Shown here one piece after another: positions 14,548 through 31,445 of a stretch of 44,225 nucleotides of DNA. A program made the position numbers and the translations under genes. The notes under the pieces are model-generated. The model saw nothing but the letters and a program-made list of their open reading frames with translations. It was not told the DNA's origin and did no database searches. The stretch is from Tubiluchus corallicola (Eukaryota; Animalia; Priapulida). The first letter of the stretch is position 1; the number at the start of each line of letters is the position of its first letter. Location of the stretch: assembly GCA_030141605.1 (NCBI GenBank), contig JAQGDQ010000609.1:1-44225 (forward strand), read 5' to 3'.

Positions 14548-17545
14548 AGTTTCAAGAGTTTCAAGAGTTTTATTCATTTTCCACATTGCATCATTACAAT
14601 TAGCATTAAAATACAGATAATTTTCCATTTGAGTAAATATAAATATAAATATGAATAAATGCAATATTATTAAGAAATTTCATAATGCGGGATATACATG
14701 TGCAAATTTCATTACAGAATAATTTTTTGATGCATACAGTTTGAGCCTAAAAGCATAGCTTGACAGGCCAAACTGTATGTGGAAATCTTAAAAAAAATGG
14801 GGGGGGGAGTAGTGACTGAAAGATGAAATGGAGCGAGAAACTAAGAAAAACTGTGATCATGGTTACAAAGTGTTCAGTATCCTGTTAAACATAGTCACGT
14901 TATATTAAGATTACTGTAGCAAAAAATGCAGGTTATTACCATTATCAAATTGTGTTACTCTTCAATACTTTTGAAATATTTCTTTTCTGACGGTTTTTTT
15001 AAAAGTTAAAAGGGAGTGACTACATTTCGAATTGCAGCTTAGTCTGTTCCATAGGACTGGCCCCATATAGCTGATGAAGTGTTTCGCCATATTTGTTCTA
15101 CAACGTCTTGGTATATATTCATTATGTCTGGTATTGTATTTTTTTACATTTATCTTGACTGGATTTTCAAAAAAAGTTGGAAATAAGTTGTTGTTGGTTC
15201 TATACATGTATATACATCCATTAAAATTAATAACATCATCCAGAAGTAATATTTGACATTGCTTAAAATGTGTAGTAGTACTTGTGCTCCTTTTGTCTAG
15301 TTTGAAGATGACACGTAAAAATTTTCGTTGTAAAACTCTTAAGCATTCTAAATTTGTAGTATAAGTAAAGCCCCATAATGTTGTGCAGTAATTTAAATAT
15401 GATAATATTAAACTGTTGTATAATGTTAGAAGATGTTCGGTGTTCAGAAAGTTTTTAATATATGAGATGATACTTATATTTTTTGATATTTTTAATCTGA
15501 TCATGAATATATGTGGTCGCCAGTCTAGATGCTCATTCAGTATTAATCCCAGAAATTTCAGTTCTTTTACACGTGTAATTCTTTTATGGTCTATTATTAA
15601 ATCGTGATTCGCCTGAATTGGTTTATTTCGGGATCTAAACAGAATGTATTTTGTTTTTGATGAATTTAGTGAAAGTTTATTTGTTTTGAACCATATAGCT
15701 AGATCATGTAGAACTGTATTTATGTAGTCAATATTGGTTTCTATTTTATGAAAGCTAAAAAAATGCTTGTATCATCAGCAAACTGAAATAAATTGTGATT
15801 TTTAACACAAAATTTGATGTCATTAATATAAATTAGAAAAAGTAGTGGCCCGAGGACTGAGCCTTGGGGCACGCCACATTTGATTGTTGTTACATCTGAA
15901 AAAGCGTTATTATATTTTACTGTCTGAGTGCGCCCTGTTAAATAATTCTTTAGCCACATATGAGGCAAACCTCTGATACCGTAATAGTACAAATTATTTA
16001 GCAGAATGTCATGGTTTACTGTATCAAATGCTTTTGATAGGTCGCAAAATACTCCGTAGGATGTGCCATTTTTTTCAACAGTATTAATGATATTTTCTAT
16101 AATTTTTGTTAAGGCCATTTCAGTGGAGCTACCTTTTCTGAAACCAAATTGTTTATTACTCAGAATTATTTTTTTTATTAAATAATGAGATAACTGATTG
16201 TAAAAAACTTTTTCTAATATTTTTGATATAAAAGGCAATAAGGACACTGGTCTATAATTGTTCAGAGACATGGGATCATCTGATTTAAACAAAGGAACAA
16301 TAATTGATTCTTTCAATTTCGTTGGTTTTTCACCTGTAAGAAAAGATAAATTAATTAAATATTACAAAGGTTTAGATATGTAGTCAATGGTGTCTATTAC
16401 GACTTTAGGTAACATTTTGTCCTTACCAGGACTTTTATTCCGATTAAACGATTTGCAAGTATTTATTATATCATTTTCTGTTACTGCACTAATAAAAAAG
16501 CTTTGTCGGTAGGTACCTTTAAGATATGTACATGGATTTACGTTTGTGTTTTCAATTTGTTCTGATAATATTGGTCCAATATTGGCAAAGTAATCGTTAA
16601 AAGCATTTGCCACCTCTACATTATTTTTAATTAATTTATTGTTTATGAACAACGTAATGGGTCGATTTTGCCTTTCTTTATGCATAATTTCTTTCATTGT
16701 ATCCCATGTCTTTTTTATGTTATCTTTAACTGTCATCAATCTATCCCTATAATACTGACATTTTGATGCTTTTATAACTGTCTTAAGTTCATTTCTATAT
16801 CGTTTGTATTCTATTTCAGATACGTCATTACTTGCCTTGTTCACCAGAGAACGATACATTTTGTTTTTTCGCTTAACACTTACTAAAATTGCTGTAGTGA
16901 TCCAAGGTTTTTTTGCTGCTTGATGATTGTTATTGCTTTTCTGTAGTTTAATATGTTTGTTATAGATATCAGAAAGCTTAGTATGAAATAAATTGTATGC
17001 GTCTTCGGTATTAGTTGCAGAATATAAATCTGACCAGTCACATTGATTTAAATCTTGGATAATTTTGTTTTTTATATGAACATTATAAGTATGTTTGCGC
17101 ACGTATTCCTTACTGTATGTTTCAATTTTGAGATCAATAATTAAAAAAATTGGGAGGTGATCTGTTATATCTGTTAGAAAAATACCTGATTTATACTTAT
17201 AATCTAGTGCATTAGTAAATATATTATCAATTAGTGTTGCTGAATAAGGCGTAATTCTTGTTGGTCTTGTAACAGTAGGAAACAGATAATTGGTCAGCAT
17301 TGTGTCTAAAAAGTGTCCGGTTTCGTTGTGAGAAGCGTGGTTTATTAAATTTATATTATAGTCTCCTAGTAAGAAAATATGTTTGTTTTGTCTATTAACA
17401 ATTGCCATAGTGTTCTGTATTTTGTCTGTAAAATGGTTAGGATTTTCACCAGGTGGTCTATATATTACTCCCATTATTGTATTTTTATTCTTGCTGCGTA
17501 ATTCAATGAAAAGTGATTCTATGTCTGGATCATTGATATAAAGAC
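14548..17545 (-). mobile_element. 5'-truncated L2-group (Crack/Daphne-like) LINE with disrupted APE-RT ORF2
   Basis: APE motifs GVIYRPP, LLGDYNINL, TLIDNIF, TDHLPIF (16362-17582); RT motifs NYRPVSLL, DLSKAFDTV, GVPQGSVLGP, FADD (15741-16316); C-terminus 14962-15504; 3' stem-loop near 14737-14775; short 9-bp-unit tail. ORF broken by stops/frameshifts. Confidence 0.9.
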
Positions 17546-18199
17546 ACAAGTAGACGTTTGATTGGCTTTGCCACAGTAACATTTGGAGATATGCAAAATA
17601 ATTGATACCTAACTACCACTGTTTGAGTGGCCTTCAACTTCACAATGAACAAGGACTGACAAGTGCAAGAACTGGACCAAATCAAAGTAAACACACGATA
17701 GATCTGTAGGCCTATCTTTTGCTTTTATTCCTAATCGAAAGAAACCCTGAAATTGATAATGGTATATAGTCGAGGAGCTATAACCAATTAAATTAGCCAC
17801 ATCAGTACCAAAGATGACTGGCTTCAGGTAAAGCAACTTTCCTGAAAGATTATAACATGAGCCCAAGTATGCTACAAAGCATGCCTGAAAGATTTAAAGT
17901 CGACAATAAACACAGTTCTGTTTAAGTCTAATTTCTTTTAATTTTGATATCACCTACCGGGGTATTTCATCTCTCGTTTTTGCTATCTATGCAATATCAT
18001 GACCAAATGTTATAACGCTATGAAAATGAGCACACTCGCAGCTATGGTGGCGCGCTCTACCATCCGACATGCTCGAAGAGTCAATAGCAGGTACCTTCGT
18101 TTAGACTTCAACGAACGGCAAAATTATCGTGAAGGCATTAATTACATCTTGTATGCAGCACGCTTAGACGAAATGAAAGTAAAACGCTTATAATTATGA

Positions 18200-23127: not shown

Positions 23128-23633
23128 TTACCAAGTGTCATACAGGTCTCCTATAGGAACTTACCAAGTGTCATACAGGTCTTCTGTAGGAACTTACCAA
23201 GTGTCATACAGGTCTTCTGTAGGAACTTACCAAGTGTCATACAGGTCTCCTATAGGAACTTACCAAGTGTCATAAAGGTCTCCTATAGGAACTTACCAAG
23301 TGTCATACAGGTCTCCTATAGGAACTTACCAAGCGTCATACAGGTCTTCTGTAGGAACTTACCAAGTGTCATACAGGTCTTCTGTAGGAACTTACCAAGT
23401 GTCATACAGGTCTTCTGTAGGAACTTACCAAGTGTCATACAGGTCTCCTATAGGAACTGTCCAAGTGTCATACAGGTCTCCTATAGGAACTTACCAAGTG
23501 TCATACAGGTCTCCTATAGGAACTTACCAAGTGTCATACAGGTCTTCTGTAGGAACTTACCAAGTGTCATACAGGTCTCCTATAGGAACTTACCAAGTGT
23601 CATAAAGGTCTCCTATAGGAACTTACCAAGTGT
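23128..23633. repeat. 33-bp minisatellite x15
   Basis: Unit TTACCAAGTGTCATACAGGTCT(CCTA/TCTG)TAGGAAC; ends at the BEL LTR. Confidence 0.95.
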
Positions 23634-26600
23634 AGTCACAGAAAACACTGTAAACAGAGGTTAATACCACTGAATGCTTTATTAACATAATTAGTATGTC
23701 CAGTATAACATAAATGTTCAGCAGCTCCCATAAGTGGATTAACCTGACTGTTCAGAGCACAGGTGTGTAATGACAGACAGGTGACTAGCAGGTAACAAAC
23801 AGAAAAGCTGGCCAAAACCAAAAGCTTTACATTCACGTCACAGATGGCGCCTCGTGCACGATAAGTAAGATTAACAAAAAGAAAGCTAAGTCTGCTACAC
23901 CCGGCTCCTAATGAGCGCTTATAAAGTGGTCATTACAATAATCTGCTTGTAAGTCACTGTGCAATATTACATGAACTCTGAACAGTAACACTTAGATGCT
24001 ATTTAGTACAACTAAATATTTCAGTCAAAACTGAACAATCATACAGTTTGATAGTTAACACTATTCCAGTGAAACACTTTGAGTGAAATAATTCCAAACA
24101 TGAAAGTTACAGATAAATACTGTTAGCTAAAGCACTACAAAGCAATGAATCAAATAACGAATCGATAATAAGATACGATGTAATAAAACAGAATCTGATG
24201 CGATAGTGACACTTTGATAGCTTATAACAGTTAGCAAAGGCAAATGTCGTTCAATGCTAAGTTCTATGTAACACATCATATAAAATTTAGAATTACATTA
24301 TCACAAAGTTGGCATACTGCCAAGTGATAGAATTTAATGTTAATTTTGTCTGAAAGATTTAAGCAACTATTTGACATACATTTCAAATTACTGGCAATTA
24401 ATTTGGCAAAATTGTAAACTAAATCACACATTCATGAATAACACTTAATTCACAAAATTAACACAGAATCAAATTTTTCGCATAACAGCGAACTATTGCA
24501 GCATCAAATTTAAATAACTAAATAATACAGGCAAGGTCATTTCTCACCAACAATACTGCAGTCATTAGGTCAAAATAAACGTAACTATATATGACAAATA
24601 TGAAATAATTCGTACTTTAGAATTAAAGTGTATATCAACACATTACACAGAATTTTACTCAGCTTCTTCGAGGAGACATAGCTTTGTTATTGGTCTAAGC
24701 AATGTCGTAGATGGGGTCTTCACCATAACTGATCTCACGAGTCCATCCGGAGCTGGAAATACTTCGGTGATTCTGCCTGTTGTCCATTGATTCCGAGCAG
24801 CATTCTCATCAACGACCAGAACCAAATCATTCTCTTTAAAGTTTCTTTTTTACAGTCAGCCATTTCTGACGTTGTTGCAAGTTTGGAATGTATTCCTTGA
24901 CCCAGCGGCGCCAGAAGATGTTGACGAGATACTGGCACTGCCTCCATCTCCTTTTCAGCATAGAGTCGTCTTTGCAGAAGATGCCTGGTGGCAAATTTGG
25001 GCAAGGTCGCTGTAGAATGAGGTCATTTGGCGTTAATGGTCTGAAGTCATTTGGGTCATTGGAAAACTCCGTTAAAGGTCTGTTGTTCATGATGAACTCG
25101 GCTTCAGCAATCAAAGTCAGCAAGACTTCATCAGTAATGGTTTGTTCCTTCAACAGTTGCCAGAAGATGCCACGGAAAGATCTGATACACCTTTCCCAAA
25201 CACCACCATGGTGACTGGCCCCTGCAGTGTTGAAGGTCCATTTTACACCCCTTTGCACCATATGCTTGTTTAATTTTTCTTCATTCCACAGTTGTAGAGC
25301 TTCACGAAGTTTACGCTCACCACCAATGAAGTTTGTCCCTCTGTCAGTCCAGACTTCCAGCACCTCTCCTCTTCTACATATGATTCTTCGAAATGCGTTG
25401 ATGAAGGAGTCAGTGTCAAGATTGTGCGTGATCTCTATATGAACAGCTCTGGTGGCCATGCATGTAGCAAGGCACCCATAGCGCTTGATGGTAGAACGGC
25501 CTTGTCTAACATATATCGGCCCGAAAAAGTCGATTCCTATTCTGGAAAATGGAGGATCGTATGACTTAATCCTTGCAGTCGGAAGATCTGCCATTAACTG
25601 CTCGGCAGGCCGGGAGCGTTCTTTCTTGCATTTGAAGCACCGAGACAAAACTCTTCTTGCTGCGCTTTTCCCCTTAATAATGTAATACTTCAGTCTCATC
25701 TGGGAAAGAACGTAGTCTCTGCCTAAATGAGCATATGATTCATGATAATATTGAATCAGCAAGTCAGTTATGTGATGTTTGTAGGGAAGAATCAGTGGAT
25801 ATTTGTAACCATAGTTGAAGCTACCTCTGGTTAGTCTTCCATAAACTCTCAGTAGGCCTTCGGCATCCACGAAGGGTCTGATGCCATACAGAGGACTGGA
25901 CTTTAGGTGATTCTTCTCTTTATTAAGTGATTCTTTATTACCTGGTAATGCGGGAGACATCAGTTTTATCTCTTCTCGAAATGCAATCTTCAGCACCAGA
26001 TGAATAATGGATTTCTCTGCTTCTTCCAGATCACCATATCGCAGATGCTTCCCTATCTTTCCATGGTAACCTGTTCCCTTGTTCTTCAAGTAATGCTTAT
26101 ACTTGATGAACCAAGCTACAGAATTACGGAGTTTTTCCCATGAAGAGAAATAAGTTAGCAACTCGTCTATTGGCTGGTCTTGGATGGCCAAGTTGATCTG
26201 CACTTTCTTCACTTCTTCATGGTCATCAGGTACTGGGAATAGTGTTGGCTGTGCTGGCCACTCAGCTTCTGTTTTCCAGAGAAAAGGAGGACCCTTGAAC
26301 CATCTGTGGTCTGCAGATAGCTGTTCTGCCTTTATGCCTCTTGTTATGTCATCTGCAACATTCTGCGAAGAACTGACATACCGCCATTGACTAACATCTG
26401 AACCACAATGAATCTCAGCGAGTCTATTGGCCACATACACTTGGAACCTCTTCTTTTCATTTTGGATGAATTTCAAAACTGATGTTGAATCAGTCCAGAA
26501 AACAACAGCATCTATTTTGATGTCCAAAGCTTCTAGAATTGTTTTGTTCATTCTGACAGCAATAACTGAAGCTTGCAATTCTAATCTCGGCACAGTTTGT

Positions 26601-29600
26601 GTTTTCAGAGGAGCTACTCTGCTCTTAGCTGTTAGCAGGCAACAATGAATGTGTCCCTGCTGATTAACAAACCGAACATAGGAGCATACTCCATAGGCGT
26701 CATTCGAGGGATCACTAAAATGATGCAGTTGGGTAGATGTAACAGGTCCGAAATTGATCAGCTTGACACATCTCGGAATTTTCAGGTCATTAAGACTGCT
26801 CAAGCTAGTGGTCCACTTTAGCCACTTAGTTTCTAGATCATCTGGGATATGCTCATCCCAATCAAGCTTTAGCTTGCACAAGTGCTGGAGTAAGACCTTT
26901 GCTGGTAGAATCACAGCACATAAGAAACCCAAAGGATCAAACAATGATGATGTCTCAGACAGGATACCTCGCCTCGTGGTAGGTTTGCTCTTCAGAACAG
27001 ACTTGAATTGAAATACATCATCTTGAGTGTTCCATCTAATTCCAAGGGCACTCTCTATTGGTGGATCAGCTAGCTTCTGTTGCAAGTCCAGAATAGGTTT
27101 GGCTCTTTCAGATTCCGGAATTTCTTTGATAACAGCCTCTCTGTTACTAAGGAACTTTGTCAAGTGGAAACCGCCTCTCTGCAGTAGTTCCGTGAGGCTA
27201 TTTGCTAGTCTTACTGCTTCATACTCTGTGCTGACAGACTTTAACAGATCGTCAACATAAAAATTGTTCTTTACAGCATACAGTGTTGCAGCATCAGAAT
27301 CATGAGCATTGTCATCAGCTGTCTTTCTGACTGCCAGATTGGCACAAAATGGTGATGAGATACAACCAAACAAGTGAACAGACATGTGGTAGTCTACTGG
27401 ACTGTCGCCAATCTGAGCGCCATCATCATACCACAAGAATCTCAGCATGTCATACTGTGAAGGATCTACGAGGACCTGGTTGAACATGCCCTCGATGTCT
27501 GCACAAATAGCAACTTCATGCTCTCGGAACCGTAGCAATACATCTAATAAATTTGATGTCAGATTCGGTCCAGACATTATAACATCATTCAGAGATATGC
27601 CATTGCACTTGCAGGAGCAATTAAAAACAACACGGATCTTGTTTGGCTTCCTAGGGTGAAATACTCCATGGTNNNNNNTACCAGTATATGGGATTCTTAC
27701 CATCACCATCTTGACGAATTCCAGAATATTCTTCATCTACCTGCTTTGCGTAGCCTTTCTGGATATTGTCACTCATGGCCTTCTTATATAGTTCCATGTA
27801 ATCGCTATCCTTTTCAAATTTCCTTTCCAGCATTAAGAAGTTTCTTAAGGCTACATGCCTGTTGTTAGGCAATTCAGGTGGATCTTGACGAAATGGAATC
27901 TTAAACTGGTAATGTCCATCAATGAGCTGTGCAGAATCAGTAGTAACTTTTAATGCCTGTGCATCTTCTACTGACATGCCAACCTTTGCCTCTCTGACAA
28001 CACCACAGGAATCCATTTCCCAAAACTTTTGAACTTGTTTAAGCAACATATCACCATCCTCAGTCTTCGTGTAATTGCTAGTGCACTGCAAACTATTTGA
28101 TGTTCCTCCCAATATGGACCAGCCCAGCGGACCTCTAACTGCTATGGGTTCATCATTACTACCTGATCTTGTCTCATAGACTAGAAAACATCGCGTTGCA
28201 TTTGTGCCTATCATTAGCGTAACCTCATTGATGTCAGCTGTGTAGAACGGAATGGACTTCAAGTGCTCAAAGGTGTTCAGCTCCACCCTTTTTGGACACT
28301 TTGTGGAACTCAAATTTAAACCATTCATAGCTGCTACACTTGGTAATTTGATATACTCATCGCAGTCGATTCCAGACACTAGCAAGTCAATTTTCTCAAC
28401 TTGTCGCTGCTCTTTTCCACACACAGTAGTTATGGACACTGTACCTTTGGAACCTTCAACATTGAGGTATTGCAGAAGCTTTTGCTCACAAAGGCAAGAG
28501 CTTGAACAACTGTCCAGCATTGCTAATGTTGTAACCGTTCTACCGTTCAATTCCGACTTAACAGTTACAGGAACAACTTGTAGAAAACAGCCAGGATCGA
28601 CAAACTGTGTAGAATTACAACTCCTCAATTCTGGTACATTACGATTCTCAGTCTCAGTGACTTCAGCGACCACTACAGTACCATTACCTCCAGAGTGGTC
28701 ATCGATTTGACTTGGCCCAGCTCCATTTGGCGGATTGTATGAAACACTAGGTGTCTTTTGCTGCCCTGGTTGTTGTCGTCTTTCGGTTATGCCACCACGA
28801 CCAAACCTCGGTAATGGATGCAACATTTGGTGATGCTTTGTGTGTGTTTTACAGTTCGTGTCTTTGCAGTTCATTCCTAGAGGGCACATCTTCGATCTAT
28901 GATCTGGCTTAAAGCAATTTATGCAAAGCTTCTTTTTAAAAACAAATTGGAATCTGTCATCGGTAACATTCTTCTTAAAATCAGTGCAGTCTTCCAAACT
29001 GTGGTCTCTAAGGCACATTGGACATTTGGCATTTTGCCTAGCCAATTCGGTGTTGAAGACCTTTGTACTTTTGCTCCTTTCCATCCTTTTCCCAGAACCA
29101 CTTCTAGATGATAATTGTTTGCTGCTCTCAAATATGTCACCGAAGACTGGGTGGTTGCTTGCTTTGGCCTTCTTGCAAACGAAATACACTAAATCTGCAA
29201 ATGTGGCTTCCTTAATATGATGTTGATTATTAGAGTCATCATCTTCAGTGAGCGTACTTAACCAGTGGCTTCGCCATTGCATTGGTAACCGCCTTACAAT
29301 CTTCTTTAAATTATCAGAAGCATTAATATCCGCGTGATAACCTAGACGCCCTAAAGCATCTCGGCAATCAACCAGTTTATCAGCATAATCTTGAAGCCCT
29401 TTCCTGTCACTGACCTTGAACTCTGGTCCATCAATTAATCCATTAATGTATGCTCGGGCTATCACATAAGGAGAGCCAAAACGCTCTTCCAAAAGCTTCT
29501 TTGCTTTCACGAAGCCTTCACTTGGTTGCAGCGTCACACAGTTTTTAATCAGCTCATAAGCCTTACCAGTTGTATATCGTTGTAAGAAGTGCAATTTTTC

Positions 29601-31251
29601 GCCATCGTCGCTGCATTTTGATTCAACATTGGCCTCAAATGAGCATAGAAAACGATGATAATCAGTTGGATCGCCATTAAATTCAGTTAGTGCTGATGCA
29701 GGTAAAGAAAAACCTCGTTTTATTGCATCTGCCATCTCCCTGATAACATTGTCATTAGATGCAGATGGTGTATTCCTCAGCTGGGCATAGTCAAGATGGT
29801 CGTACGTTACACGTAGTTCTGCAACTTGAGCCCCGTCAACAACACGAGAAGTTGGGTTCACATGAGCGAGTGTGTCTGCACTTGTGAATGCACCTGCATT
29901 CATTGCTGTTTGTCTGGCTTTATCCTGGGAACGCCCTTGCGATCTGTGGTGGGCAGTTCCATGTGCAGGTGTCATGTGAGACAAGTGTGAATGCAACTCA
30001 ACTGAATTGGTGTCTCTTTCTTCTTCCTGCAGAATTCGCAAACTCTCTGTTGCTATCTTAAAATCAGTCTCTGCTTTAAGTTTTTCAGACTGTTGCTCAA
30101 TTTTCAACTGTTGTTGTTTTAGCATTTGTTCACCTTGCAACTGTTCAAGCTTTAGTTTTGCTTTATAGGCATCCACCTTTATTTTAGCGCTTGAACTCAC
30201 GCTGCGTCGCGAGTTTGCCTGTGATGAGCGTGTGAGGGCGGATCCATGATCGCTACCCGGTGGTGCGGGCACTTCCGGTGGCTTGAGTGAATGCAAACGG
30301 GCGGATCCATGATCACTACCAGGAGAGGGTGCTGCATGTGGGCTTGGTTGCCATTTCTGTTGTAGATACGCCTCCACGTTTGCTTGCACGGCACTGTACT
30401 CACAGCTTTTGCCATCCATGTACTCACATATTTCATCTAATTCACATTGTTCAGTCACTAATTGCTTCAAAGTCTCACAAGTGTTTAGAACCTCCTCATA
30501 GGCCTTTGTTAATGAATCGGCCTTTTCCTTTATTAGTTCAAAATCGGCATTCTGTCGTAGTAGTGACTTCAAAACATTAATCAGTCTTGTCATGTAGGCC
30601 ACTTGACCTGACCTAGTTCTTTTTAACTTTTTAATGTTCTCAGACGGCATTAGAAATTGTTGCCAATCAGGAATTGCAGTAGTACCCATGACAGTAGATT
30701 CAGTTTCCAGTGGGGTACTCTCATCACTAATACTATCTGCTTGCTGAGAAAGTTCCTTCTTTCCAGACTGTGACATTATTATTTCCACACAGCAGTCTAA
30801 AGTTTTACAGCAACGTAGCAGTAGTTGTCCTACAATCAGTGTTAACAGCAAAGTAGGTCAAGCTCAGAGTTGTGTACCTGTATAGGCTACAGCATGGCTT
30901 CTAATCCTCCACAGTTCACTGTTGTAAAAAGTAAACTTTCCACAGCAAATGTCAGCATAATAGTTGAGTCAGGTTAATGATGTAGTCACAGAAAACACTG
31001 TAAACAGAGGTTAATACCACTGAATGCTTTAGTAACATAATCAGTATGTCCAGTATAACATAAATGTCCAACTGCTCCAATCAAGTGGATTAACCTGACT
31101 GTTCAGAGCACAGGTGTGTAATCACAGACAGGTGACTAGCAGGTAACCAAACAGAAAAGCTGGCCAAAACCAAAAGCTTTACATTCACGTCACAGATGGC
31201 GCCTCGTGCACGATAAGTAAGATTAACAAAAAGAATGCTAAGTCTGCTACA
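23631..31251 (-). mobile_element. BEL/Pao LTR retrotransposon, near full length; LTRs 30981-31251 (5') and 23631-23899 (3')
   Basis: Direct LTRs of about 270 bp with TGTAG...CTACA ends; purine-rich GGAGCCGGG before the 3' LTR; internal gag-pol ORF. No TSD seen. Confidence 0.95.
24655..30776 (-). CDS. BEL/Pao gag-pol polyprotein (Gag, 3 Zn knuckles, protease, RT, RNase H, integrase); frame breaks at the N gap 27673-27678 and at a T run near 24846-24851
   Basis: FNGDPTDY, CPMC..H..C / CINC..H..C, MLDSCS, KIRVVFN, ADIEGMF, FYVDD, HHFSD.S, RLEL, H..H..C..C, GIDFFGP, TDRGTNF, GGVWER; the final shifted segment reads DLVLVVDE..GRITEVF..DGLVRSV..RPITKLCLLE. Confidence 0.9.
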
Positions 31252-31252
31252 A

Positions 31253-31445
31253 TTAAGATTACTGTGGAAAAAGAATACAGGTGATTACCATTATCAAAGT
31301 GTTACTCTCAATACTTTTGAAATATTTCTTTTCTGACGGTTTTTTTAAAAGTTGAAAGGGAGTGACTACATTTCGAATTGCGGCTTAGTCTATTCCATAG
31401 GACTGGTCCCATATAGCTAATGAAATGTTTCGCCATATTTATTCT
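31253..31445 (-). mobile_element. Fragment of the same L2-group LINE family as 14548..17545
   Basis: Highly similar to about 14905-15100; directly abuts the BEL 5' LTR. Confidence 0.8.

Follow-up and report, generated by a model that had tools for sequence, protein, structure and literature searches.

How does a BEL/Pao retrotransposon prime reverse transcription when its 5' long terminal repeat (LTR) is not followed by a tRNA-type primer binding site (PBS)? This question is raised by a minus-strand LTR element of 7.6 kb in contig JAQGDQ010000609.1 of the priapulid Tubiluchus corallicola, of which positions 1 to 44,225 (44,225 nucleotides, hereafter the window) were analysed. In the ICTV profile of the family Belpaoviridae (PMC8742986), replication is tRNA-primed, the PBS is an 18-nt site for tRNA-Arg or tRNA-Gly, and the process as a whole is called poorly understood. 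Priming by an element's own RNA is described for the fission yeast element Tf1 in the available text of PMC7175516 and PMC5341516. A preliminary description of the locus had suggested that the same might hold in a BEL/Pao lineage.

Structure and classification of the element

The 5' LTR (30981..31251, minus strand, 271 nt) reads TGTAG...CTACA, and its two ends, 31251 and 30981, agree with the second LTR and with several contigs that span the junctions in runs X1 and X2. The 3' LTR (23631..23899, minus strand, 269 nt) is identical to it at 261 of the 271 aligned columns. The poly(A) signal AATAAA is found in the 3' LTR only (23683-23678), the 5' LTR having a variant at 31033. A polypurine-tract-like site (23900..23909, minus strand) adjoins the 3' LTR, and a GGGGCCGG-type tract is found at this position in many relatives. 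The Gag-protease frame (27654..30776, minus strand) encodes DUF1759, three Cys-His boxes that were read from the translation and an MLDSCS protease-like motif. The Pol frame (24836..27736, minus strand) encodes the reverse transcriptase (RT), a Peptidase_A17 domain of the Pao family (PF05380, E 4.6e-51), an integrase zinc finger and the start of a DUF5641 domain that is cut by a stop. Six consecutive N (27673-27678) mark the place where the frame changes between the first open reading frame and Pol.

By its proteins this is a BEL/Pao (Belpaoviridae) element that is a variant in its priming. It resembles Belpaoviridae/Semotivirus in its LTRs, three Cys-His boxes, PR-RT-RH-IN order, polypurine tract, animal host and length of 7.6 kb; the LTRs are of the TG...CA kind and within 0.2-1.2 kb, Pol is of the Pao type and the integrase follows RT. 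The triple Cys-His box in Gag is given as a BEL/Pao feature in the available text of PMC554778. A family character that is missing is the tRNA-complementary PBS, as no TGG follows the 5' LTR. Homologs of the Pol protein, with 41-48% identity, come from echinoderms, corals, molluscs and fish, and a PDB sequence search with Pol gave no match. Judged by host range alone, the element fits the Sailor or Suzu groups as these are presented in the available part of PMC6238403.

The flanks of the element differ and include no target-site duplication, a property of this copy, which is possibly recombinant or an assembly join for that reason. The duplication may also be missing because a minisatellite with a 33-bp unit (15.3 copies, 23128-23633) adjoins the 3' LTR.

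Elsewhere in the window, broken minus-strand RT frames (RVT_1) at 14962-17612 probably belong to a LINE, and a 138-nt piece of this region (14962-15099) is repeated close to the outer end of the 5' LTR, at 31308-31445. The segment 37944-44225 has inverted repeats at least 1,240 nt long and 93% alike, the right arm reaching the window end. Between them lies a minus-strand open reading frame of 1,187 aa (42717-39154) with a SCAN domain, one zinc knuckle and a gypsy-type integrase, in which no RT or protease motif was found. It looks like a Gag-integrase of the Gmr1 type set in a frame that resembles a DNA transposon, for which Ginger offers a comparison.

The primer binding site and its complement in the LTR

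Two nucleotides (TC, 30979..30980) separate the end of the 5' LTR from a 12-nt non-tRNA PBS (30967..30978, minus strand). The exact complement of this PBS lies in the LTR at 31100-31089 (minus strand), a segment that we refer to as the predicted primer; it recurs unaltered in the 3' LTR at 23749-23738 and nowhere else in the window. The preliminary description had reported both the PBS, 2 nt inside the LTR and without TGG, and its complement, and both are borne out, the former by direct reading together with the LTR ends and the latter also by comparison with chance. When the LTR was shuffled 20,000 times with its dinucleotides preserved, a 12-nt match arose in 3 cases (offsets 0-5 permitted). 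Six of 6,770 interior control positions reached 12 nt, probably one site at six offsets, and none of 1,171 interior positions did so against the real LTR. The polarity of the match fits priming, in that the 3' base of the predicted primer (31089) faces the LTR-nearest base of the PBS. The segment ends in AAT and is followed by C, as in relatives. When the leader was folded, 9 of the 12 primer-PBS pairs had a pairing probability of 0.96 or more, and the fold with the primer on the PBS had z = -3.5 against 300 shuffles. ARAGORN found no tRNA across the window, and near the PBS Rfam gave a single match, at chance level.

Covariation among related elements

Alignment with Pol retrieved 97 loci, the metagenome part being the best 80 of 578, and 62 of the 97 had enough upstream DNA for scoring. 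Tier 1 includes those in which the LTR end could be set as the point where two LTR copies diverge, i.e. 15 loci and the window element (n = 16). L048, of the L049 family, was excluded, as were L071 and L069, whose repeat does not mark the LTR end and which were moved to tier 2; for L016 and L033 the LTR end was judged visually and falls no more than a few bases away from where the repeat stops. A match of 10-15 nt between the PBS and the element's own LTR was found in 14 of the 16 tier-1 elements, and one of at least 11 nt in 12. Among 234 pairs in which PBS and LTR were swapped between elements, 7 reached at least 10 nt and 2 at least 11 nt. The TGG-type tier-1 elements L074 and L092 match their own LTR over 4 nt at most. 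The letters that pair vary between families, and the spacer between LTR end and PBS is 1-4 nt long in all 14 self-matching elements. Related BEL families had been named in the preliminary description as the place to look for conserved complementarity, and the covariation found in them (14 of 16 own pairs vs 7 of 234 swapped ones) gives its self-priming proposal good support.

Tier 2, for which LTR ends were chosen visually and from their position, contributes 14 elements with a match across a predicted splice junction and 6 with a contiguous match. It is the weaker tier and rests on choices made by eye because scans of many candidate ends gave chance matches; such matches of at least 10 nt at wrong places were seen in L010, L078, L083 and L089. 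The remaining loci of the 62 include four that repeat scored families, the TGG-type L066 and 22 without assignment, of which seven are on contigs that do not hold the donor part and the rest have no convincing LTR end or match. Thirty-two elements were summarised together: 27 distinct 10-mers were found at the 3' end of the predicted primer, which ends in AC or AT in every one of the 32 and is followed by C in 21. An A-pyrimidine / C junction is thus conserved at the predicted cleavage point. In all, the window element and 33 relatives (13 from tier 1 and 20 from tier 2) differ from the Belpaoviridae profile in having no tRNA PBS where this region is readable.

Within the same host, a diverged copy on one contig (X5) keeps the spacer and 11 of the 12 PBS bases, and the sequence to either side of these is different. 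The single change still permits a G-U pair; the LTR primer is not on this contig. The variant table of same-host contigs includes no variants in either 12-mer, which is weak support because the table also misses known LTR differences. Against self-priming, this organism also has some LTR contigs that part from the window element at 31124 and differ through the primer region; PBS partners of theirs did not turn up. Loose ends at 31124 and 23773 mark other LTR subfamilies of this organism, in which the upstream part is shared and the primer region is different.

Several observations concern the retrieved loci themselves. The LTRs of L007, L012 and L016 end in TA instead of CA. Seventeen BEL/Pao loci (L081-L097) come from prokaryote genome records, mostly metagenome-assembled genomes, and are probably for the most part animal DNA that was binned by mistake. 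One of them, L092, is in a 1.44-Mb Wolbachia chromosome record and has both LTRs and its TGG-type PBS. A search of viral contigs found no relatives.

Predicted introns within the LTR of related elements

Five of the tier-1 matches are contiguous (the window element, L007, L015, L033 and L081), and the other nine arise only once a predicted GT-AG intron within the LTR is removed. This intron is 76-164 nt long in eight of the nine elements and longer in L085. In a junction control with eight spliced elements, matches of at least 11 nt were obtained with GT..AG in all eight, while the best of the 255 other dinucleotide pairs reached this length in two of the eight. L058, which reads TTGG, had been considered as a tRNA-type control; since it matches its LTR over 10 nt after predicted splicing from a weak donor, it was rejected and excluded from the junction control. 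Any GT was permitted as donor, and GTAAG was found in seven of the nine elements, GTRAG accounting for 27 of the 698 GTs in these LTRs. The acceptors of the spliced relatives carry pyrimidine tracts. Splicing is thus predicted to complete the primer in most of the readable relatives.

None of the 97 loci, which are not known to be RNA-derived, contains a junction 18-mer predicted for the nine relatives. Extra pairing upstream of the primer gave a significant, weak extension in just two of the nine. Two elements scored as contiguous, L031 and L035, have a longer match of 12-13 nt across a weak GT-AG junction that is not preceded by a pyrimidine tract, and it is possible that these are decayed introns. 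A hidden intron in the LTR of the window element was also considered and rejected, since its 12-mer is contiguous and the LTR includes neither a spliced match nor a GTRAG donor.

Phylogenetic position and probable intron loss

Two trees were built, one with FastTree and a quick LG+G4 tree from which unscored rows, L066 and L008 were left out. In the LG+G4 tree the window element groups among the retrieved loci with the spliced elements L027 and L049 (SH-aLRT 95), and in the larger set of the FastTree analysis these two are again its nearest relatives. All 33 self-complementary rows of the LG+G4 tree lie on one side of a branch with a support of 99 that separates them from the TGG-type rows; there are only two of the latter, and the set was picked by likeness to the window Pol. 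The contiguous state requires six changes on the LG+G4 tree and five on the FastTree, and L021/L015 and L076/L077 are close sister pairs of one spliced and one contiguous element.

The most likely reading of this distribution is that the intron was lost repeatedly and that the window element descends from an intron-bearing form. The two trees disagree on the root, and loss is accordingly the probable rather than the proven direction. The intron splits the primer, and for this reason only a spliced 5' copy could pair with the PBS, while an unspliced 3' copy would transmit the intron. Since the minus strand copies the upstream part of the LTR from the 3' end of the RNA, the intron would persist only while the 3' copy stays unspliced, and its loss would result whenever the 3' LTR copy is spliced as well.

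The window element has a second internal complement of the primer region at 31002..31021 (minus strand), with 8 nt exact at 31015-31008 and about 17 pairs with bulges. In isolation this site pairs with the primer region at -18.5 kcal/mol, vs -15.5 kcal/mol for the PBS, which speaks against self-priming. A hairpin as good was obtained in 4 of 500 shuffles for the window element and in 265-500 of 500 for the other intron-free elements; as a general trait of intron-free elements, present in one of five, the hairpin was rejected. The folding predicts that the hairpin at 31021-31002 hides the copy of the primer in the 3' LTR transcript. As a lead, it could keep this 3' copy from competing for the PBS, as the unspliced intron would in relatives.

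The start of the transcript

In the preliminary description the paired segment began at an initiator-like C-AGT, plausibly the 5' end of the transcript. The motif is present as sequence (31101-31098), and in 7 of the 32 elements, the window element among them, a YAGT precedes the primer end by 10-13 nt. One sequencing run presumed to be of RNA gave no match to the LTR, a result with no bearing on expression. No common initiator position emerged across the 32. In the spliced tier-1 elements merely 4-10 paired bases lie ahead of the donor, and 3 in L085; a first exon of 4-10 nt is implausibly short. A TATA box is found 57-76 nt before the primer 3' end in L026, L033, L069 and L085, from which a start some 15-35 nt upstream of the paired bases would be expected; it is at 108-155 nt in five other elements and absent from 23 (n = 32). 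For the clade it is therefore doubtful that the transcript begins with the paired 12-mer itself, as it does in Tf1. The primer may instead be a longer capped fragment that is paired at its 3' end only.

In the window LTR there is neither a TATA box upstream of the primer nor a GTRAG donor, and a second candidate start lies at about 31137. Candidate promoter motifs occupy 31111..31203 on the minus strand: GGCGCC at 31203, TGACGT at 31192 and E-box-like hexamers at 31145, 31134 and 31116. AGTTG at +28 from 31100, counted by hand, is presumably a match to the DPE consensus; as evidence for the start it was set aside, for it is not kept in the 3' LTR.

Proposed mechanism and alternative explanations

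Since all 12 bases of its PBS are complementary to a segment of its own LTR, the element is likely to prime with its own RNA. We consider tRNA-independent self-priming, similar to Tf1 in function and set in another superfamily, the probable mechanism, with a probability of about 0.8 as judged from sequence comparison. Transcription would start within the 5' LTR, at 31100 or upstream of it, and the RNA segment 31100-31089 would fold onto the PBS. A cut of the RNA just past 31089 would follow; the element's RNase H is the probable enzyme, as it is in Tf1, whose RNA is cut between bases 11 and 12 (available text of PMC7175516). The RT would then extend the primer by about 110 nt, up to the cut, and jump to the 3' repeat. 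Later, the PBS would be rewritten from the primer by plus-strand synthesis, and the two would in this way stay matched during drift. In most readable relatives the primer would be assembled through removal of the predicted GT-AG intron.

The same covariation is predicted if the LTR-derived primer is supplied in trans, by short transcripts of solo LTRs or of other copies, and not cut from the same RNA. LTR bins are far deeper in contigs than the interior in both X1 and X2 (a depth, not a copy number), suggesting many solo LTRs. Supply in trans is nevertheless improbable, as leader folds pair in cis with high probability and the exactness of the AY/C end agrees with duplex cleavage of the Tf1 kind (available text of PMC7175516). 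Slightly less probable again is that the pairing of LTR and leader forms a structural RNA element, serving packaging, dimerization or translation control, and that something else is used for priming. Covariation in DNA shows pairing, not priming, and the weak further upstream pairing in two of nine spliced relatives would suit a structure; yet in 14 of 14 tier-1 cases the pairing begins where a PBS would lie, 1-4 nt past the LTR, and it replaces the TGG site, TGG-type relatives being without it and no other PBS being visible. The least probable of the three is that a host tRNA fragment or another small RNA primes, the LTR match being secondary or due to chance. Half-tRNA priming does exist in Copia lineages (available text of PMC6317226), but each of the 27 primer ends would then need a host RNA as well as a match to its own LTR, often across a splice junction, and the single Rfam match near the site is at chance level. 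Self-priming from the element's own RNA thus remains the preferred explanation.

Comparison with known systems and implications

Tf1/Tf2 of Schizosaccharomyces pombe and the Tf1/sushi group likewise have a non-tRNA PBS next to the LTR that is complementary to about 11 nt of their own LTR RNA, as far as the available text of the sources describes it. The window element shares with the Tf1 type a PBS complement in its own LTR, the polarity of priming and covariation. It differs from Tf1/sushi, which are Ty3/gypsy chromoviruses, in its Pao-type Pol and is not a member of that group. The available text of PMC7175516 and PMC5341516 includes no intron-split primer in the Tf1 system. Self-priming was predicted from sequence alone for Tcn1 (Ty3/gypsy) and for TAR/Houba/Osr-1 (Ty1/copia), according to the available text of PMC6317226; these too are self-priming lineages separate from tRNA-primed kin, and they differ from the window element as plant and fungal elements of other superfamilies.

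In the main text of the BEL/Pao surveys PMC554778, PMC3118150 and PMC6238403, so far as available, no PBS or priming terms were found, and the available parts of PMC8220671, PMC3601003, PMC6934838 and PMC12451622 do not report self-priming in BEL/Pao. A literature search that covered mainly the main text of open-access papers found no paper on the subject.

On balance we favour a broader scenario, though with less confidence than self-priming itself, in which a large BEL/Pao clade of aquatic animals dropped tRNA priming and the host spliceosome builds the primer; elements of the window type would be products of repeated intron loss, and the hairpin of the window element may replace the job of the intron. 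The pairs L021/L015 and L076/L077, and L027 and L049 vs the window element, are natural comparisons with and without the intron. If self-priming is true, it arose in all three LTR superfamilies, BEL/Pao being the third, and a widespread animal lineage is independent of host tRNA; it would also account for the failure of tRNA-based PBS finders on these elements. A primer built by splicing would tie retrotransposition to cap-proximal splicing and thus offer the host a point of control.
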